Both the position numbers and the translations under genes were made by a program. Below the pieces are notes generated by a model, which searched no databases, was not told where the DNA came from, and worked only from the letters and a program-made list of their open reading frames with translations. DNA of 64,000 nucleotides from an uncultured virus (IMG/VR IMGVR_UViG_3300049982_000266) (taxonomy: Duplodnaviria; Heunggongvirae; Uroviricota; Caudoviricetes): the IMG/VR virus record IMGVR_UViG_3300049982_000266; one strand, given 5' to 3'. This document shows, in pieces, positions 20,236 through 41,510 of the stretch (its first letter is position 1; every line of letters begins with the position of its first letter).

Positions 20236-22329
20236 TCAGACGTCGCCGAGCACGACCTCGGCGATGATCGCGTTGCCGCGCGCCAGCAGCGCCGGGTCGA
20301 GCAGCACCTTGCCCTCCATCGCGTCGGGCTCGGCCGTCTTCGCCTCGGGGGCGGCACCGCCGGTGGCAGCAGGGGCCGCAGACGGCGCCGTGCTGTCCGG
20401 AGTGACGCTGGCCGTCGGCAGCGGCTTGTCGGTGTCCACGGCAATGCCAGCGGCCCGCAGGACGGCGAAGAGGTGTTCGGCCGCCGCGCGCAGCCGGGCC
20501 TCGTTCGCGCCGGACAGGACGCGGCCCGCCTTCGTCTCGATCTCGCCGGTGGACAGCCGGGTCTTCACCTGCTGCGCGACGTCGACCACGAGGTCGGGCA
20601 GCGTGTCGAAGGCGTCGACCGGGATCGGCTCGCCGAGGCTCTTGCCCTCGACGACGGTGACCGTCGACAGGTGCACGGGCTCGGGCTCGCCGAGCACGGC
20701 GTCGGCCTCGATCGACTCGGTGTCCAGGGTGTACGGGACGTCGAAGGACTCGACCTCCGTCGGCCCCGGCCCCCACTTGTAGCGGCTGACGATCGCGTGG
20801 TCGTCGAAGGTGGCGACGAGGTCGACGTCGCTCCACTCGTAGCGCGAGTAGCCGTCGCTGTGCGTCTCGACGAGGTCGCCGCGCAGCGCCTTCGCGGCAG
20901 CGGCGCGCACGGCCCGCTGACGCTGCTCGTAGGAGCCCGGCAGCGAGGCGCCGCCGTACATCTTGACCTCGCCGGTGTCGGCGACCGGGACGTCCTTCGT
21001 CTCGACGGCCGGGGTGCTCTTCGCCTCGATCGTCGGGTCGTAGCCGTTGAGCAGGTCGTCGACCGTGATGGGCTCGACGATGAGGGTCTTCTCGCCCGCG
21101 TGGCCCTTGCCGGGAGGGGCGCCGACGGCGTCCTGGTGGCGCAGGTTGCAGTAGCCCTTCGCGCGGGTGCCCATGTGCTTCGAGAGCAGCCGGACGCAGC
21201 GGTCGAAGTCGCCGTCGGTGCCCCACTTGATCTTCGCCGCGCCCTCGCCGGACGTCCAGTAGCGGCGCAACTTCTCGGCGCCGCCCTTGTTCGCGTCGGC
21301 GCCGCCCTCGGCCTTGAACTCCTCGGGGAGCCAGCCCTTCGGCAGCGCGTCGGTGGCGCCGAGCGCGAGCGCGCGGCCGACGATGTGCGCCTTCGCCTCG
21401 ACGCGGTCAGCGGCGCGCGGGTAGGCGCGCACGGCCGCCGTCAGGTCGCCGGTGCTGCGGATCGGGAACGAGCCGTCCGGCAGCGCCGCGTCGCTCTTCG
21501 CCTCGATCGTGCCCATGCCGCCGAGCCCGAGCAGGGTGCGCCGGTGCAGCAGCGCCTTGATCTCGGGGTCGGTGCTGTGCGCCTCGGCGGCGAGTGCCGC
21601 CTGGTCGATCTCGTCCCAGTCGATCTCGCCTTCGGCGGCGGCGTAGAGCGCCGACTCCTCCTCGGTGGGCTCGTCCGGGTCGACGACCTTGACCGGCACG
21701 ACGGTGTCGCCGACGGCGAGGCTCTTGACGCTGAGCGTCATGCTCTCGCTCGCGGCCCCGAAGAGCACCGGGCCGTACTCGAAGAGGTCGAGGCTCTTGA
21801 TGTTGCGGACGCCGTCGCGGCCCTTCGTTGCCTGACCGGGCGGCACGACGTAGCCGATCGACCACTCGCACTCGTCGGTCTCGCTGAAGAACTCGACCGC
21901 CTGGAACGCCTCGCGCGAGCGGGCGCTCTTCATGTTGAAGCGGGTGGTGACGACCAGCGCACCGGCCTCGGCGGGCCACGGCTTGCCGTCCTTCGTCTGC
22001 TTCGGCAGGCGCTCGTCGCCGGGCGGGTACTCCTCGATCTCCTCGGTGCGGGAGACCCAGTCCTTCCAGTCGTGGGACCACACGCCCTTCGGCTTGCGGA
22101 TCTTCAGCGTCTTCGTGTACGCGCCCGGCAGGATCCGGTCGTCCACGTTGTCGACGATGCCGGTGACGCTGACGATCGCGCGCACGAGCCCGTTCGCCTC
22201 GTCGACCTCCAGCAGACCCGAGTGGGGAGCGGCCAGGGCGGGCGTCGCGGACGCGGCCTTGTGCTCCATGCCGGGGATGACGAGAGCCGGGCCGGACCCG
22301 CCCTTGCGCTCCAGCGTCGCAGTGCTCAC
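20236..22329 (-). CDS. HK97-type prohead protease (S78) with long multidomain C-terminal extension
   Basis: 'DNVDDRILPGAY...WSHDW...EWSIGY...LFEYGPVLFGA' core, then 'LPDGSFPI...RALALG..LP.GW', 'LRRYW..GEGAAKI.WG..GDFDRCV' and 'KAGRVLSGANEARL'. Confidence 0.9.
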   Translation of the reverse strand: MSTATLERKGGSGPALVIPGMEHKAASATPALAAPHSGLLEVDEANGLVRAIVSVTGIVDNVDDRILPGAYTKTLKIRKPKGVWSHDWKDWVSRTEEIEEYPPGDERLPKQTKDGKPWPAEAGALVVTTRFNMKSARSREAFQAVEFFSETDECEWSIGYVVPPGQATKGRDGVRNIKSLDLFEYGPVLFGAASESMTLSVKSLAVGDTVVPVKVVDPDEPTEEESALYAAAEGEIDWDEIDQAALAAEAHSTDPEIKALLHRRTLLGLGGMGTIEAKSDAALPDGSFPIRSTGDLTAAVRAYPRAADRVEAKAHIVGRALALGATDALPKGWLPEEFKAEGGADANKGGAEKLRRYWTSGEGAAKIKWGTDGDFDRCVRLLSKHMGTRAKGYCNLRHQDAVGAPPGKGHAGEKTLIVEPITVDDLLNGYDPTIEAKSTPAVETKDVPVADTGEVKMYGGASLPGSYEQRQRAVRAAAAKALRGDLVETHSDGYSRYEWSDVDLVATFDDHAIVSRYKWGPGPTEVESFDVPYTLDTESIEADAVLGEPEPVHLSTVTVVEGKSLGEPIPVDAFDTLPDLVVDVAQQVKTRLSTGEIETKAGRVLSGANEARLRAAAEHLFAVLRAAGIAVDTDKPLPTASVTPDSTAPSAAPAATGGAAPEAKTAEPDAMEGKVLLDPALLARGNAIIAEVVLGDV

Positions 22330-22651: not shown

Positions 22652-23569
22652 TCAGCCGGGGAGCAGGTCTCCGTCGGCGAAGCCCGCGATCGGGCGGCCC
22701 TGCGAAGCGCGCACGAGCGCCCCGGCGCGGCCCAGCGCCCACGTCTCGTGGGGCACGTCGGTCTTGTCCGAGCCCGGCCAGCCCGCCAGCCCGCGCTCGT
22801 ACGCGGTGCTCAGCGCCTTCGCCTCGACCATGCCCTCGGCCATCTGTGCCAGCGACACGAGCGCGGCCGGGGCGTCGTCGGCGAGCCCCTTGCTCTCCCG
22901 CTTCGGCAGGTCGTCGATCGCGGTCAGGTCGGACGCCTTGACGGCCACGCGCTCGTCGGTCGCCTTCCAGCCGTTGCCGTCCTTCGCGTACTTCCGCACG
23001 CGCGCGGCCGGGCCGGTCTTCGAGCCGAAGACAGGCTTGCCGTCCACGCCCGGCACGACGCCGCCGGTGACGATGAGGTCGACCTTGCCTCGGCCGCCGG
23101 ACCACTTCACGAACTGGCCGCGCTTGACCGTGGCCGAGCCCTCCCCGGCCTTGTCCGGGGTCTTGTCGCCCTTGCCCTTGCCGCTGCCGAACGGGGGCGC
23201 CTGCTTCCCGCCGAACGCCTTGCCCTCGGCCAGCAGTGCGAGGTCGTCGGTGTCCTCGAAGAGCCCGCCTCCGACGGTCTCCAGCGTCGGCTCCTCGATC
23301 GGCTCCTCGGCGCCGTCGAGCAGGTCGTCGAAGGACTCCGGCCCCTCGCCGGAGCGCAGCGCCTCGGCCTCGGCGCGCAGCCCGGCGGGCGCAGCCTTGC
23401 CGAACGGCGTGCTGAGCAGCACCTCGGCGGCCTCGGCCTCCTCCACCCCGAGCACGGTCGCGAGCCCCGCCAGCGACTCCACGAGGGCGCCGTTGGGGTT
23501 GCGCACGTCCCACACCCCGGAGCGCATCCAGTCGGTGTTGCCGGGGGTGTCGTCGAACGAGGCGGTCAT
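22652..23569 (-). CDS. Multidomain head-region protein (Tudor/SH3-like domain plus helical domain)
   Basis: AGGAG RBS; 'VKRGQFVKW..GRGKV...GPAARVR.Y' and 'AYERGL...WALGR...DGDLL'. The domains are separated by E-x-K motifs. Confidence 0.65.
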   Translation of the reverse strand: MTASFDDTPGNTDWMRSGVWDVRNPNGALVESLAGLATVLGVEEAEAAEVLLSTPFGKAAPAGLRAEAEALRSGEGPESFDDLLDGAEEPIEEPTLETVGGGLFEDTDDLALLAEGKAFGGKQAPPFGSGKGKGDKTPDKAGEGSATVKRGQFVKWSGGRGKVDLIVTGGVVPGVDGKPVFGSKTGPAARVRKYAKDGNGWKATDERVAVKASDLTAIDDLPKRESKGLADDAPAALVSLAQMAEGMVEAKALSTAYERGLAGWPGSDKTDVPHETWALGRAGALVRASQGRPIAGFADGDLLPG

Positions 23570-23579
23570 GGCGGGCTCC

Positions 23580-26054
23580 TCAGGTCTTCGGCGATGCGAG
23601 CGTGACGCGCTTGCGTGGTTGGGCCACGGTGCCCAGGGCGACGAGCCCCTTGTACCTGTCCTCGCGCTCGCTGTGAGCGACGAGCGCCCTGACCTCCGTC
23701 ATACCAGCGGCTTCCATCTCGGACAGTCGGTGGTGACCGTCGGCAGTCAGAAGTTCGCCCGCCCGGTAGACCAGGAGCGGGGGAGGTACGTCGGCGTTGT
23801 CCTCGCGGGCCTGCCTCAACGACTGGACGCGCTCGTCGTCAGCCGGGTACCGCTGGAACTTGACGGTCCGAAGATCGACCGTCTCCTCGGTGAACCGAAG
23901 GTCGGGGGTGACCATCTCGCCGTCGGCGACGTGTGCCAACTCGTTCACCGCGTGATCGGTGCCGTACGCGGCGTAGGCCGGGTAGCGCTGCTTCACCTGC
24001 TCCCACGAGAGGACTGCCCCCTCTGTGTCGGCCTCGCCCCCCGTACCCCACTCGTTCGGGATCAGGCTGCTCATGCCCAGCGACGCTGCACGCCGGGTCA
24101 GTGCCTTCCGGCGCTCCGGGGTGTCGGCGAGCCGGATCGCGGCGAGCAGGTCAGCGCGGGTGGCGATCGCCCCGGCCGGGGTGTTGATGACCTGCTCGTC
24201 GGTGCTGCCCTCGTCGTCGTCCTCGTCGTAGAAGACGTCGCCCTCGGGGCCGGGGCCGTCGATCATCGGGTCGTACTCGTCGTCGATCGTCGGGCCGTCA
24301 GCCTCGGTGCTGCGCTCGACCTGCCAGGAGCCGACGCCGCCGAGCACGACGACCTCGGCTTCCTCCAGGCAGCCGACACCGGTGCGGGGCGTGGAGAAGA
24401 TCCGCTGCACCGGCACGGTGCCGGTGATGATGTAGGACTCGTCGGTGCTGACACCGCGAGCGAACTGCGCGGCGACCGAGCGGTCGACGCTGAAGGACGA
24501 GAGCGGGCGCAGCGTCACGTCGGCGACGCCCCGGCCGCCGTCGACCGCGTCGACCGCCCACTCCGGCGTGCCGCCGTCGTAGACCTTGTGGCCCCGGTAG
24601 ACCGGGACGTGCGTGATGCCGAGCGAGGCGAAGTAGTCCTGCGTCGCCTCGTACTGCGCGAGCACGAAGGCGCGCATGGAGACCTGCTCCTCGCGAGCCC
24701 GCTCGACGTCTCGGTCCGAGACCCCGAAGTGGTAGTCGACCTCGGCCGTCTCGGTCAGCCCGAAGACCTCCTGCACCGTCTCGTGGAGCACGATGCTGCG
24801 GCCGTTCGCCGACGATCCGAGGGCCCACGCCTGCACGAGCCCGTTGACCCGCTCGGCGCGCTTCTCGGCCCGGAAGGTGTCGGCGTCGACCACGGTGACG
24901 GCGTTGCGCGCGAGCCCGTCGGGGTCCTTCGCCATGAGGGCGTCGAACTGCGCCGTCGGCACGAAGCGGTCGGTGAAGTCGCCCTCGATCACGGAGCCGT
25001 CGAAGCGCTTGCGTGGGGTGCGCAGCAGCGTCATCTCCCCCCGGTCCATCGCCTCCAGGTGGCGCGCATCCTGGTAGGTCAGCATGTCGTCGTCGGCGAC
25101 GTCGTCCATGCGCAGCAGCAGGTCGGCGACGACCTGCGCCTTCGCCACGGAGGCGGCCTCGCGGCGGCCGTCACGCTCCTCGCGGCCCGCCGCGCCGTAG
25201 GCCATGTGCCAGGCGCCGAAGCCCTCGTAGTCCGGCAGCCCTTCCTTGTACGCGCCGACGACCTGCGCAGCGCTGGCGGCCTGCTCGCGGTCGATCCCGG
25301 CGCTCACCGGTGCGACGCCCTCCAGGGGGTCGAAGGTGCCGAGGGTGTCGCCAGAGTCGGCCTCGGGGGCGGCCAAGTTCGCCACGCCGTCGGGCCGTGG
25401 CCGTGTGCCTCCGGCCGGGTCGGTGGTGGGGACGGCCCGCTGAAGCCCTGCGTCGTTGAGCCCGTTGTTGCTCGTCCAGACCATGAAGGCGCCGAGGTTG
25501 TCGAAGCGCAGTGTCGTGGCGGCGTCGTCCCGGCTGGAGCGGACGAAGCCCTGCGGCGGGGTGTCGCCGGTCAGCCACGCGATCTTGCCGTCGGCCGCCT
25601 CCCAGTAGAGGTCGGCTCCGACCGGACTCGCGTCGGGGTCCTGGACGGCGTCCTCGGGCACGTTCGGGCTGTCGGGCGTAGCGCGCTGTGCGCTACGCGG
25701 TCCGGGCTCGTTGCCCTCGGCGTCGGCGATGACCGTGAGGTAGCCGCTGTCCAGCCGCACGACCTTGCTGTCGCTGTCGCGCAGGACGTCGACCCGGCCG
25801 CCCTCGAAGTAGCGCTGCACCGTGCCGGTGCCGCCGCCGAAGATCTTGACCTTCGCGTTGATCTCGATGAAGCGCCCGGCGCGGTCGCGCGGGTGCTGCG
25901 TCTCGCGGAAGGTGCCCCGGCGCTTCACCTGGAGGCTGCGCAGGGCGCGGTCCCGGTGCAGCCCACAGGCGCTCACGCCGCCCAGTGCCAGCACGCCGTC
26001 CAGCAGCGTCTTCGTCTGGACAGTGCTGCGCGAGCAGTACGCACAGCGGCTCAC
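23580..26054 (-). CDS. HPRD-leader multidomain protein with ADP-ribosyltransferase-like and ParB-like domains
   Basis: GTG 26054 overlaps the upstream TGA. Leader 'FRETQHPRDRAGRFIE'; ART motifs 'VYRG', 'LSSFS' and 'EAEVVV'; C-terminal 'PPLLV...DGHHRL'. Confidence 0.8.
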   Translation of the reverse strand: MSRCAYCSRSTVQTKTLLDGVLALGGVSACGLHRDRALRSLQVKRRGTFRETQHPRDRAGRFIEINAKVKIFGGGTGTVQRYFEGGRVDVLRDSDSKVVRLDSGYLTVIADAEGNEPGPRSAQRATPDSPNVPEDAVQDPDASPVGADLYWEAADGKIAWLTGDTPPQGFVRSSRDDAATTLRFDNLGAFMVWTSNNGLNDAGLQRAVPTTDPAGGTRPRPDGVANLAAPEADSGDTLGTFDPLEGVAPVSAGIDREQAASAAQVVGAYKEGLPDYEGFGAWHMAYGAAGREERDGRREAASVAKAQVVADLLLRMDDVADDDMLTYQDARHLEAMDRGEMTLLRTPRKRFDGSVIEGDFTDRFVPTAQFDALMAKDPDGLARNAVTVVDADTFRAEKRAERVNGLVQAWALGSSANGRSIVLHETVQEVFGLTETAEVDYHFGVSDRDVERAREEQVSMRAFVLAQYEATQDYFASLGITHVPVYRGHKVYDGGTPEWAVDAVDGGRGVADVTLRPLSSFSVDRSVAAQFARGVSTDESYIITGTVPVQRIFSTPRTGVGCLEEAEVVVLGGVGSWQVERSTEADGPTIDDEYDPMIDGPGPEGDVFYDEDDDEGSTDEQVINTPAGAIATRADLLAAIRLADTPERRKALTRRAASLGMSSLIPNEWGTGGEADTEGAVLSWEQVKQRYPAYAAYGTDHAVNELAHVADGEMVTPDLRFTEETVDLRTVKFQRYPADDERVQSLRQAREDNADVPPPLLVYRAGELLTADGHHRLSEMEAAGMTEVRALVAHSEREDRYKGLVALGTVAQPRKRVTLASPKT

Positions 26055-28504
26055 CGAAGATCCTTGTTGACCGTGCTGTAGCGGCTCTCGGTCCGGAAGG
26101 TCTCCTCGGTCCCGTCCTCCCAGCGGACCGGCACCTCGTACCACGAAACGTCGCGGCGCAGCCCCTCGAACTTCAGGGCGGGCTCAGCGGTGACCTCGCC
26201 GTAGCGGCCGTCGACCTCGATCTTGTTGCCCGCCACGAGCGACCGTGCCTCGAAGGGCCGGGTGCGCTCGAACTCGGCGCGCTCAGCCTCGCGACGGACC
26301 CGCTCGGCCTCCCGCTCGGCGACGATCTCGCCCCACGTGCGGTAGCCCGCGTAGCCCTTGTCGACGCCGCTCTCGTCGATCGCGACGATGTCGTCCAGGT
26401 GGGCCACGCCCCGGCCGCGCCAGGGGGCGCCAGCCTCCGGGTTCGGCGGGTCCTCGACCGGGATCGAGACTCGGCCGGAGTCGCGGTCCTGCCACAGCAC
26501 GTCGACCCCGTAGCCGTCGCTGGTGACCTTCATCGTGTAGTGCGTGCCCTTCGGCTTCTCCTGGCGGATGCGCACGAGGGAGCCGGGGCGCGGCAGCACG
26601 GCTGCCTCGCCGGTCGTGGCGGCCGTCCAGGCGGTGAAGCCCTCGGGTACAGCGACCTTGTCGCGCTTGCGCTGCTCGGCGGCGGCGGCCTTCGCGGCGG
26701 CCTTCTCGCGCTGCTCTCGGGCCAGGCTCTCGTCCCCGGCGGCGCCGCCCTCGCGGACCTTCGCGCGAGTGAGCACGGTCTGCGCGACGCCGTTGTAGGA
26801 GTCGTGATCCTTGATCGTGCCGCCGAGCACGACGTCGTCGTCGAGATCCCAGTCGTGCGTGCCGGAGGCGAACCACTTGACGACGTTGCCGTCCTCGGTC
26901 ACGAAGGTCAGCAGCGTCGTCGTGCCGTACTGGCCGTCGATCAACTTGCGCCCGGTGACCTTCGCCTTGACGTCGGCGATCTTGTCGCCGACCGCGCCGA
27001 TGTGCTGCGAGTCGGCGGTCGCGTCGGCCTGGCGCTTGCGCTCGGCCTGGACGCCGTCGTGCCGCATCTTCGCGCCGACAGCCGAGATGTAGAGGTTGAG
27101 GTTGCGGCCGGAGATCGACTCGGCGTTCGCCAGGGCGCGCAGGTTGGTCGCGTACTCGCTGTCGCCGTCGATCGTGCGGGCGTACTCGCGGGTGCTGATC
27201 GCGGCGTTGAGCACGTCCTCGTTGTCGAAGGCGTCGCGGATGCGAGCGGCGAAGGCGGGGTCGCCGCCCTTGCGCTCATCCTTGTCCATGTCGCCCGAGA
27301 TGAAGTCCCACACGTAGTCGGCCGTGGGGCTCTTCTCGCCCTTGCGGACGCTGCCGTCGGCGGGCTCAGGGATCGCCGCGTTGTACGCCTGCGCGGCGGC
27401 CTTCGACGTCCAGCCCTTCTCGGCGACGATCGCGAGCGTGACCGTCAGCAGGTCGATCGTGCCGTAGCGGGCCTCTTCCTTCGAGCCGCCGTCGCCCTCC
27501 TCGTCGGGCTGCGGCACCTCCCAGTCCATCATCCAGAGGTTGCTCGGCTTGATGCCGAGGAAGGTCTCCATGCAGTTCGAGCCGACCTGCTGCTGCTGAC
27601 CCTCGGGACCCTGGACGATGTACGTGTCCTTCCGGTCCCGCTGCGAGTGGCAGACGTCGCACTCGCGGGCCTTCGGGCGCTCCAGCAGCGTCGTGCCCTC
27701 GGCGAGCCGGGTGATGAGCCCGGCCTCGGGGTCCCACTGGAGGGTGCCGACGAACGTCCAGCCGTCGTGCCGCACGACCGGGCGGTCGAGGGTCAGGCGA
27801 GCCCGCTCCTCGATCCGGGGGATCGGCAGGCGGTTGCCGTCGGCGTCGGTCGTGATCGTGACCTCGTAGCGCTCGACGTTGTAGCCGAAGCGCTCGGCGA
27901 TGCCAGCGCGCTCGGCTCGCCGGTTCGCCGCGTCGATCTTGGCGATCGCACCGTCGAGGTCGCGAGCGGCGAGTTCGTACTCGGTGTTCGGCTGCGCCTG
28001 CTGCCACTCCTCGTCGGGGATCTGCTCGGTCTCGGTGGTGGGGGCGTCGGGTGCCATGACGTCGTCCACGGCGCGCTGAGCCCGGCCGCTCGGGGCGGCC
28101 GGGACCGGGGCGTCGTCGGGCACCTCGAAGTCGACGACGTCGGGCAGGCTGTCGAGGTCGAAGAGGGTCGCCTCGGCGGGCTCCTGCTCGGGCAGCGCCT
28201 CGACCTTCGTCGGGTCGTCGGTGGGCTTGCCGCCGCCGGGCCGCTCGATGACCGTGACGTGCCCACGGTGGACGCGCACGGTGCTGCCGTCGGCCCGCTG
28301 CACGAGCACGTTGCCGCCGCCCGCGTTGCCGGTCACCGTGCCGGTAGAGCCGCCGAGGATGCGCACGAGGGCGCCGGACTCGATGAAGCGGCCCTCGCGG
28401 TCGCGGGGGTGGTCGGCCTCGCGGAAGAGCGGCTTGCCGAACGCCTTGCCCTCGATCTCGGCGACGACGACGCGTCCGTTGACGAGGGCGAGTGTGCGCG
28501 GCAT
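26051..28504 (-). CDS. HPRD-leader multidomain protein with Zn-ribbon and OB-fold-like domains
   Basis: Leader 'FREADHPRDREGRFIE'; 'CDVCHSQRDRKDTYIV...QVGSNC...FLG'; 'HIGAVGDK...YG...F...GN...WFAS...GTIKDH..YNG..QT.LTR'. Confidence 0.75.
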   Translation of the reverse strand: MPRTLALVNGRVVVAEIEGKAFGKPLFREADHPRDREGRFIESGALVRILGGSTGTVTGNAGGGNVLVQRADGSTVRVHRGHVTVIERPGGGKPTDDPTKVEALPEQEPAEATLFDLDSLPDVVDFEVPDDAPVPAAPSGRAQRAVDDVMAPDAPTTETEQIPDEEWQQAQPNTEYELAARDLDGAIAKIDAANRRAERAGIAERFGYNVERYEVTITTDADGNRLPIPRIEERARLTLDRPVVRHDGWTFVGTLQWDPEAGLITRLAEGTTLLERPKARECDVCHSQRDRKDTYIVQGPEGQQQQVGSNCMETFLGIKPSNLWMMDWEVPQPDEEGDGGSKEEARYGTIDLLTVTLAIVAEKGWTSKAAAQAYNAAIPEPADGSVRKGEKSPTADYVWDFISGDMDKDERKGGDPAFAARIRDAFDNEDVLNAAISTREYARTIDGDSEYATNLRALANAESISGRNLNLYISAVGAKMRHDGVQAERKRQADATADSQHIGAVGDKIADVKAKVTGRKLIDGQYGTTTLLTFVTEDGNVVKWFASGTHDWDLDDDVVLGGTIKDHDSYNGVAQTVLTRAKVREGGAAGDESLAREQREKAAAKAAAAEQRKRDKVAVPEGFTAWTAATTGEAAVLPRPGSLVRIRQEKPKGTHYTMKVTSDGYGVDVLWQDRDSGRVSIPVEDPPNPEAGAPWRGRGVAHLDDIVAIDESGVDKGYAGYRTWGEIVAEREAERVRREAERAEFERTRPFEARSLVAGNKIEVDGRYGEVTAEPALKFEGLRRDVSWYEVPVRWEDGTEETFRTESRYSTVNKDLR

Positions 28505-28543
28505 GGCGGGCAGCCTCTCAGGCTGGACGGGCTTGCGTCGCGG

Positions 28544-28615
28544 TCAGTCCGAGCAGCCTCGGCACTCGGCCGTGACCGGGTTGATCGGGCAGTCACAGGA
28601 GGGGCACTTCTCCAC
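28544..28615 (-). CDS. 23-aa Cys-rich microprotein
   Basis: GAGGGGG-N8-GTG; MEKCPSCDCPINPVTAECRGCSD; fills the intergenic gap exactly. Confidence 0.5.
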   Translation of the reverse strand: MEKCPSCDCPINPVTAECRGCSD

Positions 28616-28620
28616 GTCGT

Positions 28621-28914
28621 TCACCCCCTCGTCGGGGTGCTGAAGACCGCGTCGGCCGGGACGTCGTCGTCGGTCTCCTCGACCGGGACGTCGCCACTCG
28701 TGCCGACGAGGCTGGTGAGGTTCTGGAGCGCGATGAGCACGCTGAGGTCGTCGTCGAGCACGAGCGCGCGGGCTCCGCTGGTCGGGGTGGCGGAGAACTC
28801 CTGCCCCTCGCGGGAGAGCAGCAGGTCGGCGATGCGGTCGCTGCCGCTGACGACGCCGTCGTCGATCGTGACGTCGAAGGGGACGCCCTCGTAGGTGCCT
28901 GTGGCGGTGAACAC
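28621..28914 (-). CDS. Small acidic protein, candidate immunity/inhibitor of the upstream metallopeptidase
   Basis: GTG 28914 after GGAAGGAAG. Directly downstream of the peptidase domain, with its own class-A promoter motif. Confidence 0.6.
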   Translation of the reverse strand: MFTATGTYEGVPFDVTIDDGVVSGSDRIADLLLSREGQEFSATPTSGARALVLDDDLSVLIALQNLTSLVGTSGDVPVEETDDDVPADAVFSTPTRG

Positions 28915-28980
28915 GTGATCTTCCTTCCGGTGGGTGTAGGTGGTGTACGTGACCACCGTACACGTCCTTAGCACGGAGCG

Positions 28981-31900
28981 CTACAGCAGGGCAAGCGTTC
29001 CGAGCATGAAGGCGCGGAAGTCCTCGTCCGCCTGACCCTTGTCGTCGTAGATGTACGGGCTGCCGCCGAAGATCGACTCGATCCCGGTCTGGAAGACCTC
29101 GAACGAGTCGCCCTGGTACTCCTTGCCGGTGTAGGGCTCCAGGAAGTCGTCGCGCCGGGACACCTCGCGGCCGAAGCGGGTGCTCCGGTAGCCGAGCGAC
29201 TGCTTCCGGTTCTTCTCGGCCGCACGGGTGCGCGCGCCGATCTCGGTGCCCTCGTCGGTCGTCCGGCTCCACAGGAAGGCGTCCTCGGCGGCGGCCAGCC
29301 CCGGCACGTGGCGCTCCATGTGGTGACCCAACTCGTGCAGGCTCACCCGGCCGTAGCGCCCCGCGCCCTCGACGCGCTCGGAGCCGTCGGGGCTCAGCGC
29401 GATCACCGACGAGCCGAACGAGTAGTAGCCGCGCTTGACCGTCTTGACGGTGAGCGGCTGCTTCGCCGCCTTCTCCAGCCAGTCGGTCGGGTAGTGCTGC
29501 TCGGCCCAGCGCAGCGCCTTGACGCTCTCGGCCCGCTCGCCCGGCTGGAGGAACCTCATGCTCTTCGCGCCGCGCGGGCCGACCTCGCGGAACTCGGCGA
29601 TGACGGCAGCCGTCGCCCGAGCCCGCGCCGTCGCCAGCGTGATCTTCTCGTCGCGCTGCGCGCGGTTCGCCTCGTCCCGCTTCGCCTGCGCCTCGCGCAG
29701 CCGGTCGAAGGCGGCCTTGACCGACGGGTCCGCCGACGCCTGGTCGCGGGCTTCGGCCAGCAGCCGCCGGGCGGCGTTCGCGTCGTCGGCGTCGCCGAAG
29801 CGGCCGTTGGCCCGCACGCCCTCGGCGGTCTGGAAGCGCCCGCTGCTCAGGCTCCGGACGGCCGCGTCCACGGCGTTCTCCAACGCCTGCTCGTGGGCGC
29901 GCCGCATCGTGTCGACGTCGTTCTGGAAGCGCTGCCGGTCCTCCTCGGTGGTGCGACCCGGCCGGGCGTCCCTCAGCGCCTTCAGGCGGGCCGCAGCGGC
30001 GTCGTGCTCGGTGAGCAGCGCGGCGTAGTCCGGCTCCTGCGAGACGTCGAAGGACGTCGAGCGGTAGGCGGCCATGAAGTCGCCGTCGGGCGTCTCGCCC
30101 CTGGTGCGCAGCCCGGACAGGTGGGCCATCGCGTCGTTGAAGGACGTGAACTGGCCGCCGGTCCGCTCGGAGATGAGCGCGTCCCGGCGGGCGTCGCCGA
30201 GCGCGGTGATGCGCTTGCTCAGGTCGTCGACCTCCTGACGGACCGCCTCGATCTCGTCGGCGGCCGGGCCGTCGATCTCGCGCCGGACCCGCAGGTCGAT
30301 CTCCTCGGCGATCTCGCGACCGGCCGAGCGCAGCACCTCCAACTGCGCCAGCGTCGCCTCGGTCGGCCCGCCGTCAGGAGCGGTCTCCCGGCGAGCCCGG
30401 CGCACGGTGGTGGTCTCCGGCGCCTCGCCGCGCTGAAGGGCGGCCAGGTCGAAGTCGGTCGCGTAGCCGGTGACCTCGACCTCGCCGGTGCCGAAGATGG
30501 CGGGCAGCGCGGCCTTGTAGTCGGCCAGGCGCTCGGTCAGCGGCCGGTCGTCGCGGGCCGGGGGCTCGCGCCGGGCGACGTCACCGATGACGCGCTCGCC
30601 GCTGAGCACCGGCGCGGTGCGGGCCAGCACCCGCATCTCCTCGGTGTAGTCGTTGACGACGCCGAGCCGACGGCGGGTGTCGATCTCCTCCTGCGAGCCC
30701 GCCTCCTCGATCCCGAAGGGGTTGACGCGGAAGGCGCCCTGGAGCCGCCGCAGGCGGTCGTTGAACGGCCCGCTCGCGTAGTCCATGTCGTCGATCCCGG
30801 ACTCGCGGATGCCCTGGAGCGCACGGTCGAAGGTGCGCTCGCCGATCTGCGTGAAGAGCCGCTGGAGGCTCGCCTTCATCTCGGCCTGCTGCTCGGGCGT
30901 CGCGCCGTTGCCGACCATCGCGCGCATCGCCTGGTTCGCGTCGGCGCCGGAGATGCCGAGCCCCTGACCGCGTGCGGCCATCGTCGTCAGGTAGACGCGC
31001 TCGCGGTCCAGGTAGGACTCCAGCGAGCCGGGGAAGTTCGAGTCCCGGCGCTCGCGCCAGTTCTCGATCTTGCGGTTGATCTGCGCGAGGACGGCGGCCT
31101 CGACCTTGTCGGCCTCGGACCGCAGCACGCTCCCGATCTCGCGGCTGCGGCGGTCCAGGATCGTCTCGCGCACGTAGTCCGCTCCGGCGTTGCCGGTGCG
31201 CTGGATCGCCTCGTCGCCGTAGAGGTCGTAGGTCGTGGTCGTGAAGCCGTTGAAGAGCCCCACCCGGACGCCGCTGACGGCCTCGCCGTCGTCGCCCTCG
31301 CCCTCGACGTCCTCGACGTACTCGACGATGCCGGAGACGTCGCGGCCGGTGACGGTGTTCGGGATCGAGATGCGGTCGCCCGCCTTGATCTCGCCGCGCC
31401 CGATGGTCTCGCGGGCCACCGGAGCCGGGGTCGGGATCGGCTTGTCCTCGGGCAGCGGCGGCAGGAACGTGACGGCCTCGCCCGCCTCGTAGTTGCCCTG
31501 CATCGGGCGGCCGAGGTGGGACTCGCCGGTGACCCGGTAGTGCGAGCCGCCGAGGATCGGGACGACCTCGGTGACGCGCATGATGTAGGGGTTGCCGGTG
31601 TCGCCGAAGGTGCCCGCGATGAGGTCGCCGACGCCGATCTCGGCGGCCGTGCCCTGGCGGGTCTGCTGCTCCTCCTCGGTCGGCTCAGGCACCTCCGGCC
31701 CGAACCGGCGGGTCAGCACGACGGCGCGGCCGAAGGGGAGGGTCTGCTCGTCGCGGTCGCCCAGCCCCGGCGTCGAGGTGAGCAGGATCATGTCGGGGTC
31801 CTCGGGGATCTCCCGCCTGCCGGTGATCGTGCGCGCGACGCCGTCGCCGAAGTCCACGACGTCGCCGACGGCCACGTCGAAGGCCGCGACCTTGCCGCTG

Positions 31901-34900
31901 TCCGGCACGCCCATGCCCTCGGCGGCCTCGACGTAGGTGCCGCCGAGCAGGCTGCGCTCGACGCGGCGGCCGTCGGCGTCCTGGATGACGAAGGTGCGGA
32001 TGGCCGTACGGCCCTCCTGCCGGATCGAGACGATCGTGCCCTCGATCTCGGGGTAGCCCTGCGTGGCCGGGATGCGGACCCGCGAGCCCGGCACGAGGCG
32101 GCGCACGAGGCTGGCCCCGGCGGGGCGCTTGCGGCCCCGGCCGCCGAGGTTGACGGCCGCCGAGGTGGAGGCGATCTCCAGGCTGCTCACGGCCGCCAGG
32201 AGCGCCGTGCGGCGCCGCTCAGGGGTGCCGTCGGCCTCGGCCAGCCCGCGCAACGCAGCGGCCAGCGCGGCGCTCTCGTCGGCGCTGAGGGGTTGCCGGG
32301 CGCGGATGCGCGCAGCGGCGGTGCGGACGGCCTCGGGCTGCGCCGGGTCGGTGTCCAGCGCGTAGCCGTTGATGATCCGGCGGCGCGAGGTCGGCAGGCT
32401 CGGGCGGCTCGTCGCCACGGTCCGGCGGTCGTGCGGCGCGGGCGGCGGGACCATGCTCGCGATCTCGGACGGCGTCAGCGTGCGGGCGATCTGGACGACC
32501 TCGGACGGGTCGCCGGTCTCGCTGTAGATGAGCCCGTCGTTGCGGCGCACCTCCAGGCTGCCGTCCTCGTTGATCGCGACGACCTCGCCCTCGCCGCTGC
32601 TGTCGACGAAGCGGTCGCCGACCAGGAGGTCGCCCCACGTGCTGTCCTCCAGCCGGACGGCCGGAGCCGGGGCGGGGACGGTGATCGGCGCGGGGTCGGG
32701 CTCGGGCGTCGGTGCGGGCGCCGGGTCGGCCACGGCGACCGGCCGGGGCGGCAACGCGGGCTCGTCAGTCAGGTCGTCGTCGAGCGAGGTCTGGCCGGGG
32801 ATCTCGGCGCCGGAGACGCGGTGCTCGGGCAGGATCGTCGCGCGCAGCGCCTCCAGCGCCTCACGCTCGGGCTGGTTGTCGGCCTCGCGCACGGCGGCGT
32901 CGAGCACGTCCTCCAGGTCGGCCGCGAGGGCGCCCGCGTTGACCGAGTCGCGGTCCTCGTTGATCTCGTCGGCGTAGACGCTGGCGGCGGTCCGGACGTC
33001 CTGGAGCACGCGGCTGTCGCCGTCGATCGCGTCGGCGGCCTCGGAGACGCGGTCGGCGGCGTCGGCGTCCGGCCGGGGCTCGGCGGTGCCGTCGTCCTGG
33101 AGCCCGCGCCGGTTGAACTCCTCCTGGTAGTCCTCGCGCTCGTCGTAGTCGCGCAGCCCGAGGGCGGCGTACTCGGCGCGCAGGGTCTCGACGCTGCGCT
33201 CGCGCAGGGCGGCCCGGCGACGGCGGCGCTCGCCGCGCGCCATGTCGAAGCCGCTGTCGTTGCCCGTGGCGGTCAGGGCGTCGATCACGCGGTCGAGGTC
33301 GTACTCGGCGTCGTCGTCGGTGGCCGCGAGCCGTGCGCGCAGCGCCTCGAAGTCGTCGTCGAGGTTGGCCCACGCCTGCTCGACGGGCTCGGCCGCCGCG
33401 TCGCGCTCGCGCTGGATCCGGGCGCGGACGTCGGGGTCCAGCCCGTCCTCGCCGGGCCGGGGCCGCTCGGGCAGCGACGTGCTCGTCAGGTCGGTCTCGA
33501 AGTCGGCGACGCGGTCGCCGAGGTCGGCGAAGTCGCCGCGCTGCGCCTCGGGGAGTGCAGCGACCAGGGACCGGATCGCCTCCGGGTTGGTCATCGTGTC
33601 GCGCCGGACGACGCCCTCGGCCTCGTCCTGGCGGCGGTTGCGCTCGGCCGAGATCGCCTCGCGCATGGCGATGAAGCGGTCACGGCCCTCGCGGTCGCCG
33701 CGCTTCAGGTCGCGGGCAGCGGCGATGATCGCCTCGTCGCGGGCGGTGAGGTCGTCGTCGGACAGGTCGCGCAGGTTGACCGGCGCGTCCAGGTCAACGG
33801 CGGGCTCGCCCGCCGGGGCCGGGCCGGTCAGGCGCCGGGCGACACCGGTCGGGCCGAAGAGGATTGCGCCCTCGGCGCCGCTGTCCTCGCGGCGTCCCTG
33901 AAAGCGGATCTCGGCGCGGCCGAACTGGTCGGTCCCGTCGGCCTCACGGGACAGGATGAGCACCGGCGACTGGCCCTCGCGGTACTCGATCCGGTCGCCG
34001 GGCTTCAGGTCCGCGACGGGGACGACCTCGAACGCCTCGCCGCCGTCCGTCATGCCGCGCGTCTCGCGCTGCTCGCCCGGCATCGGGGCGTCGTTCGGGC
34101 GGCTGAAGACCCGAGCGCGGGTGTAGCGGCTGCCGCCCTGGAGGCGCACGAACTCGGTGCGGCCCTCGGCGTTCACGATCTCGACGCGGCCGTCCATCGT
34201 GTAGCGGACGAAGCGGCCCCGGCTCTCCTGCGCGCGCAGGAGCGGACCCTGCCCGCCACCGGGCGTCATGCTGTCGGCCCGGTGCTCCGGCATCTGGATC
34301 ACGAGGTCGGCGCCGTCGGGCATCTCGGTCGCGGGCACGCCGAGCGTGTAGCCGTCGGACAGCAGCGGGGCGTCGGCCTCGGCCTGCGCGCGGGCGCGGG
34401 CGTCGCTCTGCGCCTGCTCGGCCTCCTGCTGCTGCGCCCACGTGCCGGTGTAGCCGCGCTCGGTGTCGAAGGCGGCGCGCTCGCGGATGAGGGCGGCCAG
34501 CAGGCGGCGGCCCTCGCCGTCGCGCCAGCCCTGGATCGTCGGCCCCATGTCGGCGGTGTCAGGGAACGCCTCGGCGCCCTCGGCCGAGCGCAGCGCGCCG
34601 AGCCGCTTGCCGAACTCGACGGCGTCGGCCTCGCTCTTCAGGTTCGCCGTCGGCAGGCTCATGCCGAGCCCGGTGCCGAGGTGGCGGACGCTGAAGCCCT
34701 CGCCCCGGCCGCCCTTGACGGCGAAGAGCGCGGTCCCGGCGATCGGCCGGACGTCGCGCTCGGCGCTCTCGCGCAGGGCGGTCGCGCTCTTCTCGCTGAC
34801 GCCCTCGGCCTCGGCCCGACGGAGCAGGTCGGCCTTCAGGTCGGCGATCCGCTGCGCCTTCGTCTTGCCCTTGCCGACCTCCTCCTCGGTGCGGTCGTCG

Positions 34901-36021
34901 GTCCCCTCGGGGTCGACCTCGACGACGCGGACCTCGTGGCCCTCGCCCCGGTAGTGGGCGTACTCGCCCTCGACGGCCTGCACGGCGAGTTCGCGGCGGC
35001 TGCTCCAGCGCAGCACGCTCCAGCCGCCCAGCCCCTCGCCCCGGCTGTAGCGCTCGGCGCGCTCGCGGCTCTTGCGGGCGCTCTCCCGCTCGGCCTCGGC
35101 GGTCTCGCGGGCGTCGGCCAGCAGGTACTCGCGGGTGTCGACGTAGACCCACGGGTTCGGGTCGGCGCGCTCCAGCAGGAAGCGGTTGTCCTCCTCGCTC
35201 GCCATCTCGTAGGCGAGCCCACGCCGCTCGGCGGTGTTCTTCAGCGTCTTCGTGCGCTCGCGGCCGTCGGGTCCGGCCGGGGCGTCCAGACGGGCGCGGA
35301 AGCGGAAGTAGGAGCCGCCGCGCAGCCCGCGCGACTGGTAGTTGACCTTGCTCCCCTGGAGCACCATCTCGGGCGAGGAGTAGCGGTCGTTCGTACCGGT
35401 CTTGCCGAACTTCGCGGCAGCGATCGCGGCCTCGACCTCGTCGGCGACGCGCTCGTGCTCGGCGGCGCGGCGCTGCTCGGCGGCGGCGCGGTCCTCGGGC
35501 TTGCCGGGGCCGACGGCGACGGCGTGCGAGTAGGCGCGGCTCTTGCTCTGCCGCTCCTCGAAGGTGCCGTCCGGCAGGGTGACACGAGTGAGCCGGGTGC
35601 CCTTCGCGGCGCGACGCGGCTTCGTGGTGGCGGCGCTGGTCGCGTCGTCGGGAGCGGCGGCGATCGGATCGTCGACCGGCAGATCCTCGCGCTCGTCGGT
35701 CTCGTCGACCTCGGCCTCGTCGGGCTGCTCCGGCAGGTCGGCGGGCGCGTCCTCGGGCTTGTCGGTCGGCTGCGCGCCATCGGGCCGCGCCTGCACCGTG
35801 AGGTAGTTGCGGTGGACGGAGATGACCTTGCCGTCGCTGCTGCGCTTGACGGCGATCCGGCCGCCGCCGAGGTTGCGCTCGACGGTGCCGGTCGTGCCCC
35901 CGGCCCCCCAGATCGAGACCGTGGCGCCCTTCTCGATGAAGCGCCCCTTGCGGTCGCGCGGGTGCAGGTTCTCGTCGAACTTCGGCCGCGCGGCCTTGTG
36001 CTCAGGGAGGGTCGCCGTCAT
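28981..36021 (-). CDS. Giant (about 2346 aa) HPRD-leader polyvalent protein with KOW/SH3-like repeats and C-terminal zincin metallopeptidase
   Basis: Leader 'FDENLHPRDRKGRFIE'; six 'L/I..GD.I/V' repeats; C-terminal 'SLHELGHHME...DDF.EPYTGKEY...EVF..G.E'. Start 36021 chosen from promoter spacing (track start 36030). Confidence 0.85.
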   Translation of the reverse strand: MTATLPEHKAARPKFDENLHPRDRKGRFIEKGATVSIWGAGGTTGTVERNLGGGRIAVKRSSDGKVISVHRNYLTVQARPDGAQPTDKPEDAPADLPEQPDEAEVDETDEREDLPVDDPIAAAPDDATSAATTKPRRAAKGTRLTRVTLPDGTFEERQSKSRAYSHAVAVGPGKPEDRAAAEQRRAAEHERVADEVEAAIAAAKFGKTGTNDRYSSPEMVLQGSKVNYQSRGLRGGSYFRFRARLDAPAGPDGRERTKTLKNTAERRGLAYEMASEEDNRFLLERADPNPWVYVDTREYLLADARETAEAERESARKSRERAERYSRGEGLGGWSVLRWSSRRELAVQAVEGEYAHYRGEGHEVRVVEVDPEGTDDRTEEEVGKGKTKAQRIADLKADLLRRAEAEGVSEKSATALRESAERDVRPIAGTALFAVKGGRGEGFSVRHLGTGLGMSLPTANLKSEADAVEFGKRLGALRSAEGAEAFPDTADMGPTIQGWRDGEGRRLLAALIRERAAFDTERGYTGTWAQQQEAEQAQSDARARAQAEADAPLLSDGYTLGVPATEMPDGADLVIQMPEHRADSMTPGGGQGPLLRAQESRGRFVRYTMDGRVEIVNAEGRTEFVRLQGGSRYTRARVFSRPNDAPMPGEQRETRGMTDGGEAFEVVPVADLKPGDRIEYREGQSPVLILSREADGTDQFGRAEIRFQGRREDSGAEGAILFGPTGVARRLTGPAPAGEPAVDLDAPVNLRDLSDDDLTARDEAIIAAARDLKRGDREGRDRFIAMREAISAERNRRQDEAEGVVRRDTMTNPEAIRSLVAALPEAQRGDFADLGDRVADFETDLTSTSLPERPRPGEDGLDPDVRARIQRERDAAAEPVEQAWANLDDDFEALRARLAATDDDAEYDLDRVIDALTATGNDSGFDMARGERRRRRAALRERSVETLRAEYAALGLRDYDEREDYQEEFNRRGLQDDGTAEPRPDADAADRVSEAADAIDGDSRVLQDVRTAASVYADEINEDRDSVNAGALAADLEDVLDAAVREADNQPEREALEALRATILPEHRVSGAEIPGQTSLDDDLTDEPALPPRPVAVADPAPAPTPEPDPAPITVPAPAPAVRLEDSTWGDLLVGDRFVDSSGEGEVVAINEDGSLEVRRNDGLIYSETGDPSEVVQIARTLTPSEIASMVPPPAPHDRRTVATSRPSLPTSRRRIINGYALDTDPAQPEAVRTAAARIRARQPLSADESAALAAALRGLAEADGTPERRRTALLAAVSSLEIASTSAAVNLGGRGRKRPAGASLVRRLVPGSRVRIPATQGYPEIEGTIVSIRQEGRTAIRTFVIQDADGRRVERSLLGGTYVEAAEGMGVPDSGKVAAFDVAVGDVVDFGDGVARTITGRREIPEDPDMILLTSTPGLGDRDEQTLPFGRAVVLTRRFGPEVPEPTEEEQQTRQGTAAEIGVGDLIAGTFGDTGNPYIMRVTEVVPILGGSHYRVTGESHLGRPMQGNYEAGEAVTFLPPLPEDKPIPTPAPVARETIGRGEIKAGDRISIPNTVTGRDVSGIVEYVEDVEGEGDDGEAVSGVRVGLFNGFTTTTYDLYGDEAIQRTGNAGADYVRETILDRRSREIGSVLRSEADKVEAAVLAQINRKIENWRERRDSNFPGSLESYLDRERVYLTTMAARGQGLGISGADANQAMRAMVGNGATPEQQAEMKASLQRLFTQIGERTFDRALQGIRESGIDDMDYASGPFNDRLRRLQGAFRVNPFGIEEAGSQEEIDTRRRLGVVNDYTEEMRVLARTAPVLSGERVIGDVARREPPARDDRPLTERLADYKAALPAIFGTGEVEVTGYATDFDLAALQRGEAPETTTVRRARRETAPDGGPTEATLAQLEVLRSAGREIAEEIDLRVRREIDGPAADEIEAVRQEVDDLSKRITALGDARRDALISERTGGQFTSFNDAMAHLSGLRTRGETPDGDFMAAYRSTSFDVSQEPDYAALLTEHDAAAARLKALRDARPGRTTEEDRQRFQNDVDTMRRAHEQALENAVDAAVRSLSSGRFQTAEGVRANGRFGDADDANAARRLLAEARDQASADPSVKAAFDRLREAQAKRDEANRAQRDEKITLATARARATAAVIAEFREVGPRGAKSMRFLQPGERAESVKALRWAEQHYPTDWLEKAAKQPLTVKTVKRGYYSFGSSVIALSPDGSERVEGAGRYGRVSLHELGHHMERHVPGLAAAEDAFLWSRTTDEGTEIGARTRAAEKNRKQSLGYRSTRFGREVSRRDDFLEPYTGKEYQGDSFEVFQTGIESIFGGSPYIYDDKGQADEDFRAFMLGTLALL

Positions 36022-36064
36022 GCCGGGCATCGTGCCGTGCGGGCTGCCCTAGCGTCGCCCCGGC

Positions 36065-36244
36065 TCACGCCGTCGTGACGTTGCCCTGACGGTCGACCTT
36101 CAGCCCGGCGGCCTCGGCCGCCTTGATGGCCGCCGCCTTGCTCTCGTGGAAGCGCACGTCGCGCATCGGCACGATCGAGTCGCCGAGGGTGAAGGCGTAC
36201 GCCGCGTTCGCGACGAGGTACCGGAGACGCATCCCGAGTGCCAC
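36065..36244 (-). CDS. Small hypothetical protein (59 aa)
   Basis: AGGGAG RBS and GTG 36244, strong GC3 bias (MALGMRLRYLVANAAYAFTLGDS...), preceded by a class-A motif. Below the track length cut-off. Confidence 0.6.
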   Translation of the reverse strand: MALGMRLRYLVANAAYAFTLGDSIVPMRDVRFHESKAAAIKAAEAAGLKVDRQGNVTTA

Positions 36245-41483: not shown

Positions 41484-41510
41484 GGGGCGGATGATCCCCC
41501 TGTCGCGGGG

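Follow-up and report, generated by a model that had tools for sequence, protein, structure and literature searches.

The stretch of DNA analyzed here (the window; 64,000 nucleotides from an uncultured virus, IMG/VR record IMGVR_UViG_3300049982_000266) contains three large genes, which we call cargo1, cargo2, and cargo3, between a portal-MuF fusion gene and the gene for an S78 prohead protease. The three encoded proteins begin with the same N-terminal module, which we call the leader. The gene set of the window was obtained by open reading frame (ORF) calling guided by GC content at third codon positions, plus family scans. The leaders, the genes that carry them, and the two genes that frame them are as follows, with E values for the leaders from a hidden Markov model (HMM).

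36302..38749, minus strand: portal-MuF fusion, 815 aa (Phage_portal, 1.1e-39; phrog_2662, 1.6e-59).
28981..36030, minus strand: cargo1, 2349 aa, a backbone polyvalent-type protein with leader, acidic linker, long body, and C-terminal zincin-like domain.
35776..35997, minus strand: cargo1 leader, residues ~12-85 (HMM E 1.5e-31).
26051..28504, minus strand: cargo2, 817 aa, with leader, acidic linker, and phrog_2319 payload.
28235..28438, minus strand: cargo2 leader, residues ~23-90 (HMM E 2.9e-30).
23580..26054, minus strand: cargo3, 824 aa from the GTG at 26054, with leader, linker, probable R-S-ExE ADP-ribosyltransferase (ART), and possible ParB-like C-terminus.
25716..25922, minus strand: cargo3 leader, residues ~45-113 counted from the 26054 start (HMM E 3.8e-29).
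20236..22329, minus strand: S78 prohead protease polyprotein, 697 aa (Peptidase_S78, 1.4e-6, 29 bits against a cut-off of 21; phrog_80, 1.2e-12).

An initial annotation of this DNA had claimed a shared N-terminal leader on three otherwise unrelated proteins, and both BLASTP and an HMM scan confirm it. The N-terminal module is the only segment common to cargo1, cargo2, and cargo3 (pairwise BLASTP E 5e-23, 5e-17, and 2e-14; 47-52% identity), with no further homology outside the leader better than E 0.18 in the same comparisons, and in a six-frame scan the number of full copies in the window is exactly three (E 1e-29 to 1e-31). The leader spans ~65 aa and consists of the motif [WF]-D-E-x-x-HPRDxxGRF plus a small beta-barrel; 28 columns of its core alignment are invariant, among them F, E, H-P-R-D-R, G-R-F-I-E, and G-T-G-T-V. 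The module itself has a net charge of +3 to +8, and the acidic linker that had been described after each leader is present, the 60 aa that follow having net charges of -12 in cargo1, -11 in cargo2, and -6 in cargo3. We found no match for the leader in Pfam (E<=10), NCBIfam, or PHROGs, and no relative of its profile among PDB sequences, where WD-like and nanobody rows were spurious. A literature text search with HPRD-type motif strings returned unrelated phosphoproteomics papers and nothing relevant.

We modeled residues 1-100 of cargo2 with AlphaFold2 (AF2) from 13 aligned sequences (mean predicted local distance difference test score, pLDDT, 77.7). Residues 1-25, which include Lys20, have pLDDT <50 and are predicted to be disordered, and the motif plus barrel (residues ~30-100) is predicted with five strands at pLDDT ~90 (about 86-94). 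The best match by VIA is the KOW domain of Spt5 (Z 8.4, root-mean-square deviation 2.5, 58 residues), with NusG and Tudor domains at 6-7.8, and Foldseek of the model against PDB and BFVD gave nothing at E<=1e-3 and KOW/Tudor/SH3-type folds at E>=0.015. The earlier SH3-like label holds for this model at the level of the fold, and no function is implied by it. The likeness to KOW, Tudor, and SH3-like barrels is that the small five-stranded barrel of the leader superposes on them; the differences are that there is no sequence relationship, that the HPRDxxGRF element is without a counterpart, and that the matches are in the range of generic folds.

The leader belongs to a large family. A profile built from the three copies found 315 relatives at E<=1e-3, 105 of them at <=1e-10, among 1.84 billion 50%-identity cluster representatives, and we assigned classes by a local re-scan of 150 listed proteins among the 315. 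Class A, with the full module, comprises 123 listed proteins, the window's own included; outside the window's own, the listed proteins hold 124 full modules, 98 N-terminal and 26 internal. Many class A proteins are 2000-5000 aa long, and most listed leader carriers are 1000-5000 aa. Class B comprises 24 listed proteins that have the ~20-residue motif [WF]DExxHPRDxxG[RQK][FW] alone, repeated 4-8 times at a domain-sized median spacing of 259 aa (n=91 spacings, 23 proteins). The motif is kept as amino acids across hosts with 37-72% GC.

Payloads behind the leader had been described as variable, and in the relatives they are, with ART, Zeta toxin, methyltransferase (MTase)-helicase, GNAT, UvrD, tRNA nucleotidyltransferase, and others represented. 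Class A payloads include an ART exoenzyme, a dyad of Eco57I-type MTase and SNF2 helicase, GNAT, and UvrD, and the class B repeats bracket ART-PolyVal, InPase, GNAT, FtsK, topoisomerase IB, 2H/Acb1, Zeta toxin, C39 peptidase, and MuF domains (Pfam). A word-index search gave 57 further longer leader proteins, named only 'hypothetical protein' or by generic automatic labels, and these add NUDIX, peptidoglycan-binding domains, and tRNA nucleotidyltransferase plus HD. One IMG/VR protein of 1150 aa (L002:9662-13114), encoded two genes after the portal, has HPRD motifs together with a tRNA nucleotidyltransferase and an HD phosphohydrolase, a Pfam set identical to that of the listed protein P0181, and it may be an injected tRNA-repair cargo. 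In another IMG/VR locus (L027:7229-10957), an S78 domain (residues 107-180) is followed in a single ORF by an HPRD motif (474-494) and then by a full leader (924-974), and here a protease and a leader-led unit appear to be fused.

The fold and the family bear on the possibility that the leader acts at or after ejection, either as an N-terminal domain that goes ahead into the portal-tail channel, for threading or as a pilot, or as a barrel that binds nucleic acid or a host factor and positions the effector. The barrel does resemble KOW/Tudor/SH3-like domains, a group with many members that bind nucleic acids or peptides, its positive module precedes an acidic linker, and it sits at the N-terminus of very long proteins that would have to pass the tail. 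In the available part of Jamet et al. 2017 (PMC5576092), the MuF protein gp7 of SPP1 is given as binding the portal, a further point on this side. However, at Z<=8.4 and Foldseek E>=0.015 the likeness in fold is a generic one from which no function follows, no family of DNA-binding or host-binding proteins is matched, and such a role leaves the internal copies and the motif-only repeats between domains unexplained. We therefore regard a role at ejection or after entry as quite improbable.

Polymorphic toxins carry pre-toxin demarcation motifs, and by analogy the motif-plus-barrel cassette could be mainly a DNA-level recombination junction for payload swapping, with little function in the protein. 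Mosaicism is high among the payloads that follow the cassette, and units are found by themselves as well as in fusions. The leader DNA of the three window genes, however, is only 68-71% identical with a longest exact run of 16 nt, and from this the three leaders are old paralogues, not recent duplications. The conservation of the motif as amino acids across such a range of host GC, together with the well-folded domain predicted by AF2, also speaks for a protein-level role, and we consider a purely DNA-level junction very improbable. Both of these roles rank as weaker than the junction-processing role weighed below.

The other genes of the structural operon that we refer to are the following.

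39502..41775, minus strand: large terminase TerL, at the upstream end of the head module (phrog_2, 2.3e-21).
Between the TerL and portal-MuF genes, minus-strand operon: 99-aa ORF, from ORF calling.
28621..28914, minus strand: small ORF after cargo1, ~97 aa from the GTG at 28914, with 'ggaaggaag', which resembles a ribosome-binding site, before 28914.
22652..23569, minus strand: 305-aa ORF without a leader, with two E-x-K sites, 'LAEGK/AFGG' and 'MVEAK/ALST' (here and below the slash marks the candidate cut).
18660..20153, minus strand: HK97-fold major capsid protein (MCP) with an N-terminal scaffold-like region (Phage_capsid, 1.6e-34; phrog_10, 2.8e-35).
2397..7496, minus strand: tape measure, 1699 aa, among the connector and tail genes.

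GC across the entire 64-kb window is 71-76%, and the structural operon is co-directional on the minus strand, in the order TerL, portal-MuF, cargo genes, S78 protease, MCP, and connector and tail genes. Megablast with the window found no match among known phages, and the window is best explained as holding the head module of an actinobacterial siphophage or prophage with high GC. The placement of the cargo genes inside the head operon, which the initial annotation had pointed out, is confirmed by a spacing of ~14 kb between portal-MuF and protease. In HK97 the portal gene directly precedes the protease gene, so the ~14 kb in the window is an insertion relative to the HK97 plan. Among the neighboring genes, a fusion of glycosyltransferase family 2 and a methyltransferase at 14821-16110 lies on the plus strand, antisense within the minus-strand structural operon, and looks like a moron.

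The expectation that relatives of the leader would lie in head modules was borne out, and they usually lie directly after the portal gene. A tblastn search with the leader found it at residues ~26-77 of the 4624-aa gp48 of Streptomyces phage Gilgamesh, where the order is a 'portal and MuF-like fusion protein' (gp46), an 81-aa gp47, and then gp48. With a more distant leader as query, gp73 of Gordonia phage Sixama was a weak tblastn match; the gp73 gene follows that of portal gp72 directly, an annotated ADP-ribosyltransferase and the maturation protease lie downstream of it, and gp73 is also the best BFVD structural match to the leader model. One scan of genome contigs gave 16 loci, 13 of them with the module, from Nonomuraea, Planomonospora, Streptosporangium, Actinomadura, and Nocardioides. 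A portal homologue is upstream in 11 of the 13 (the remaining two are contigs of 6.1 and 2.4 kb), a portal-MuF fusion is directly upstream of the leader gene in seven of seven scanned genome loci, and in L009 and L014 the protease, or the protease and MCP, is downstream of the leader genes. Motif-only proteins of a cyanobacterial metagenome-assembled genome likewise lie between the portal and head maturation protease genes.

In IMG/VR, a narrow profile of three sequences gave one locus and a broader alignment gave 22, of which 21 were scanned for flanking ORFs on the same strand, at most three per side. At least one of these ORFs has a PHROG for portal, MuF, terminase, protease, or MCP in 17 of the 21, or in 15 of 19 after the near-duplicate pairs L032/L033 and L037/L039 were merged; these counts are descriptive and without a random-locus control. 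Two of the loci have features of their own. In L014:4320-8659 (Actinomadura violacea), portal-MuF has an extra C-terminal extension of ~280 aa, and an ORF between portal-MuF and the leader gene combines an HPRD motif with a PHROG match of the ART exoenzyme type. L040:9953-10546 (37% GC) encodes a protein of 197 aa with the motif at residues 22-41 and a sub-threshold match to the PBECR2 nuclease, and it adjoins baseplate/tail-fibre genes.

The three cargo proteins differ in what follows the leader. Several segments of the cargo1 body are homologous to giant leader-bearing proteins, over nearly the full length in the case of P0024, and cargo1 is the orthologue of the single giant protein found in many relatives. 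It ends in the following domain.

28984..29787, minus strand: zincin-like domain of cargo1, residues 2082-2349, with HELGH at 2232 (phrog_8561, 4.9e-8; phrog_19443 'minor head protein', 8.7e-5).

This domain has no sequence match in Pfam or PDB. Domains of the same type lie at or near the C-terminus in 40 of the 123 class A proteins, and 39 of these 40 keep HExxH. This conservation fits a zincin-like domain, which we would describe as a conserved, mostly C-terminal part of the backbone protein in preference to the one swappable payload that it had been taken for. We also considered the cargo1 zincin as a general reader of the motif and rejected it, as the family is absent from all 24 motif-only proteins. 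For the small ORF that follows cargo1, tblastn found homologues immediately behind the backbone cargo gene of Gilgamesh (gp49), L009, and L014, and one more on L015. The product of this small ORF is acidic and without a family match, and it could be a chaperone or an inhibitor.

The cargo2 payload (phrog_2319, 2.1e-61, residues 187-585) is found both with a leader and inside larger fusions, and in Atlas it matches only unnamed phage clusters, with leaderless look-alikes of ~400 aa. The cargo3 payload has no match in Atlas, PDB sequence searches with all three cargo proteins gave nothing usable, and none of the three matches a polyvalent-specific Pfam model at E<=0.01. The GTG start of cargo3 overlaps the cargo2 stop as GTGA, and an independent database gene call (P0014) has the identical start. 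The DRAT family of Pfam scores 16-20 bits against cargo3 at a cut-off of 25, with E 2.9e-4 on a fragment, and is matched by one of eight homologues. A conserved Arg, Ser, and Glu-x-Glu make up the catalytic signature of R-S-E ADP-ribosyltransferases, and in cargo3 R487, S520, E565, and E567 (P0014 numbering) are invariant in eight of eight aligned homologues. The ART label proposed earlier is therefore kept as probable on the strength of these residues, although the DRAT score is below its cut-off. For the ParB label, a weak ParBc_2 match at the C-terminus (E 0.19) is all there is, along with 'DGHHR', which we take to be a ParB-like sign. An hhalign comparison of the cargo3 family with an ART-bearing protein was also tried and returned the HPRD motif alone.

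The 305-aa ORF has no family match. Homologues of its C-terminal domain stand at the C-terminal end of P0112, P0098, and P0090, and in P0066 and P0041 they come immediately before a leader. We considered it as a degenerate fourth leader protein and rejected this, with an hhalign probability of 2.4% against the leader profile.

Payloads like those of cargo2 and cargo3 occur elsewhere in separate leader-bearing proteins and also fused. P0012 and P0013 consist of a leader, a cargo2-like unit, a second leader, and a cargo3-like unit, so that the internal leader is retained. Just before internal leaders there is a conserved stretch of ~50 residues that ends in Lys, and cargo2 opens with 20 residues ('PRTLALVNGRVVVAEIEGK') that share homology with the tail of this stretch. 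Since the leader is kept in separate and fused units alike, the cassette marks the start of a unit whether the units are separate genes or parts of one polypeptide. The free-standing cargo genes stressed in the initial annotation are thus a true feature of the window but only one variant, many relatives having single giant leader-first proteins instead.

The motif is also associated with MuF. An IMG/VR contig encodes, directly after the portal, a 307-aa classical MuF protein with PF04233 at residues 90-195, the motif at 205-228, and a short C-terminal domain, and P0076 has MuF at 938-1059 and the motif at 1068-1088. SPP1 gp7, a MuF protein without cargo, lacks the motif. Because the motif comes right after MuF in such fused proteins, the portal-MuF gene of the window and the motif-first genes that follow it look like a split form of MuF-motif-effector fusions. 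The MuF part of the window's portal-MuF occupies residues 684-796 (Phage_Mu_F 6.1e-4, below the Pfam cut-off). A second MuF-like fragment, free-standing and 176 aa long (10171-10701), is encoded among the head-tail connector genes and matches phrog_2468 (3.1e-15) over the C-terminal part of the profile only.

It is possible, though we hold this tentatively and think it somewhat doubtful, that [WF]DExxHPRDxxGRF is a cross-phylum linear motif that tethers polyvalent or MuF-linked cargo units to a MuF/portal hub in the procapsid, and that actinophages added an SH3-like barrel to it to give a self-contained leader. If so, the motif would serve as a portable tag, determining which proteins a siphophage takes into its head and injects, and the arrangement of portal-MuF followed by a leader gene would be the split form of MuF-motif-toxin fusions.

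The same observations bear on a different role, in which HPRDxxGRF is a junction or processing motif: a polyprotein would be cut, by itself or by a peptidase such as the backbone zincin, to release effectors in the capsid or after injection, and the free-standing N-terminal copies would be remnants of gene fission. That motif-only copies are domain-sized distances apart and bracket ART-PolyVal, InPase, GNAT, FtsK, and MuF domains fits this role, as do the position of the motif directly after MuF in the 307-aa protein and P0076, its absence from SPP1 gp7, which has no cargo, and the internal leaders kept by fused relatives. Processing of polyvalent proteins by zincin-type peptidases has also been proposed, in the part of Iyer et al. 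2017 available as PMC5512222. The cargo1 zincin family, however, is found in none of the motif-only proteins, and no Pfam MPTase matched those of them that were sampled. In the AF2 model the motif is ordered (pLDDT ~87-94) and not an exposed loop, and we know of no self-cleaving chemistry that fits HPRD. The strongest argument for a further role is that free-standing genes keep the motif strictly at their N-terminus, with no upstream part from which anything would have to be released, so that it must do more than release a downstream domain. We consider junction processing unlikely, although it stays the closest of the alternatives.

We then mapped E-x-K/[SAV] sites, which resemble candidate prohead protease sites, over 31 window proteins. 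There are 23 such sites, and 22 of them are in the block from portal-MuF to MCP; the other 24 proteins have one between them, with none in TerL and none in the 1699-aa tape measure. Within the head block the sites are distributed as follows.

Portal-MuF: four sites, a number reached in 0 of 300 shuffles.
cargo1: three sites.
cargo2: one site.
305-aa ORF: two sites.
Protease: nine sites, with 0.96 expected and nine reached in 0 of 300 shuffles.
MCP: three sites, a number reached in 2 of 300 shuffles.

The initial annotation had placed a cleavage at the Lys that precedes each leader, and the sequences of cargo1 and cargo2 fit this. Candidate cleavage Lys12 of cargo1 ('LPEHK/AARP', encoded at 35995-35997) and Lys20 of cargo2 ('EIEGK/AFGK', encoded at 28445-28447) are each a few residues before the leader and conform to E-x-K/[SAV], but the third protein, cargo3, departs from the pattern, as described below. 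Across the family, [DE]xK[AVISLT] occurs 6-26 aa upstream of 50 of 124 modules, compared with 110 of 2620 control windows taken at random in the same proteins. In relatives, sites are found at the N-terminus and in the C-terminal region of the protease, at the portal N-terminus, in the portal-MuF linker, and at the cargo N-terminus. Neither the length nor the sequence of the pre-Lys peptides is constant (P0022 has only 4 aa), and conservation begins after the Lys; being short and variable, these peptides are unlikely to be the address themselves.

The residues K-S-L-G are common to sites in MCP ('TEAK/SLG', 148/149), the protease ('VEGK/SLG'), the portal-MuF linker ('LEGK/SLG'), and HK97 gp5 ('FNK/SLG', 103/104); the available text of PMC12749128 describes gp5 as having a 102-residue scaffold domain that ends at the cleavage point. 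The portal-MuF linker (residues ~440-535) is rich in Pro, Ala, and Glu and has 'LLEGK/SLG' (507) and 'PREVK/ADD' (528). A site is present in the linker in relatives as well, as E-T-K/A-L in L004, L006, and L008 and as E-N-K/A-L in L005. This suggests that the prohead protease cuts MuF off the portal. The earlier statement that MuF stays on the portal without a toxin is correct in that portal-MuF ends after MuF and carries no toxin, but with a conserved linker site of the form E-[TG]-K/[AS]-L it is doubtful that MuF stays there. The 697-aa protease has, beside its S78 domain and its nine sites, a phrog_6439 domain (347-412), and as a polyprotein it probably also supplies scaffold-like or internal peptides.

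From these observations, our preferred explanation is that cargo1, cargo2, and cargo3 are head-internal, probably injected, polyvalent-type effectors encoded between portal-MuF and an HK97-type protease. Each unit would consist, in order, of a disordered N-terminal peptide (with an E-x-K end in cargo1 and cargo2), the motif, the five-stranded SH3/KOW-like barrel, the acidic linker, and the payload. The motif-plus-barrel cassette would most likely serve as the unit's address for some conserved procapsid component close to the portal, with MuF or the portal itself as the best candidate for docking, and the S78 prohead protease would trim the N-terminus at the Lys after addressing. The cassette would mark unit boundaries both in separate genes, as in the window, and in the giant fused proteins of many relatives. 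We count in its favor that the relatives carry payloads of the kind typical for polyvalent, injected effectors, as described in the available text of Iyer et al. 2017 (PMC5512222). We infer the packaging, cleavage, docking partner, and injection of cargo1-3, and we give the explanation as a whole a probability of roughly 0.45.

Several observations weigh against this explanation. The most serious is that the motif occurs 4-8 times inside covalently fused polyvalent proteins and also after MuF, where no address is needed; because it punctuates fused proteins in this way, the junction-processing role stays alive. The address to the prohead claimed in the initial annotation is therefore only one possible role of the leader, as its HPRDxxGRF core is also a mark of junctions in fused polyvalent and MuF proteins. 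The motif is conserved, moreover, across phyla whose phages use different families of prohead protease. At the level of the sites, the Lys before the cargo3 leader ('SLQVK/RRGT', encoded at 25923-25925) has no Glu at P3, and a strict Lys site accompanies only 40% of the family modules. MAFFT does not place the window's 'EAK/SLG' in one column with 'FNK/SLG' of HK97, so that the MCP cleavage point is itself putative and the likeness to HK97 is at the level of the motif only. As for gene context, Sixama has a leader on gp73 only, and its ART gp75, between portal and protease, is without one. Four of the 21 IMG/VR loci have no head gene nearby: L024 has only phrog_6439, L026 an endolysin, L038 nothing, and L040, in a tail module, baseplate and tail-fibre genes. 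The enrichment of leader genes near head genes is also descriptive, because no random-locus control stands beside it.

The leader is found in hundreds of protein clusters, is portal-proximal, and is absent from Pfam, NCBIfam, and PHROGs v4, and it should aid the annotation of giant phage proteins now called 'hypothetical'. The leader and its motif would also offer a mutable handle on how polyvalent proteins and MuF toxins are selected for packaging into the head, and if the leader is an address, it would allow proteins of choice to be tagged for loading into the capsids of siphophages. According to the head-specific map of E-x-K/[SAV] sites, MuF would be cut off the portal, and the 697-aa protease would be a polyprotein.

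Of the systems already described, polyvalent proteins are the closest. In the available text of Iyer, Burroughs, Anand, de Souza & Aravind 2017 (PMC5512222), these are giant multi-domain proteins whose genes lie beside those for portal, MuF, and head proteins and for which packaging and injection are predicted. The window's cargo genes are similarly flanked by TerL, portal-MuF, the S78 protease, and MCP, and their relatives carry ART-PolyVal, InPase, the MTase-SNF2 helicase dyad, GNAT, 2H, Zeta toxin, and zincin domains. They differ in that the cargo is split into three genes and that no polyvalent-specific Pfam model is matched. Neither the leader nor the HPRDxxGRF junction motif comes up in that text, where the strings 'GRF' and 'SH3' have no occurrence, and the LPD1-40 supplements, which lie outside it, may hold the leader.

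MuF polymorphic toxins, as presented in the available part of Jamet et al. 2017, resemble the window in having a MuF gene directly after the portal with a variable toxin downstream. In the window, by contrast, MuF is the toxin-less C-terminal part of the portal and the effectors are separate motif-first genes. Cargo1, cargo2, and cargo3 have no MuF match, and the combination of N-terminal MuF with a C-terminal toxin is not found there. In the main text of Jamet et al., 'motif', 'linker', and 'cleav' have no occurrence.

In T4, the internal proteins IPI-III and Alt have a capsid targeting sequence, and these and the ejection proteins of SPN3US carry a short N-terminal propeptide, cleaved off by the prohead protease (PMC7411985, in the part available). 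The likeness is that cargo1 and cargo2 begin with peptides of 12 and 20 aa that end in a head-specific E-x-K site, where cleavage would occur in the window. Unlike T4, however, where the removed peptide is the address, the window has a short and variable pre-Lys peptide and a conserved element after the site. The T4 protease is also of a different family from the S78, HK97-type protease of the window, in which no scaffolding core is evident.

The head module of HK97 is matched in having an HK97-type portal, an S78 protease, and an HK97-fold MCP with a scaffold-like N-terminus in the same order, as well as in the 'K/SLG' site, with the window proteins below the cut-offs of the NCBIfam equivalog models for that module. 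The window departs from it in the ~14 kb of inserted cargo, the MuF on the portal, and the 697-aa protease polyprotein. Head-packaged, injected multi-domain effectors beside portal/MuF genes and protease-trimmed propeptides on ejection proteins are already described, whereas the leader domain, the cross-phylum HPRDxxGRF junction motif, the retention of a leader per unit across gene fusion and fission, and the head-specific E-x-K map appear to be described here for the first time.

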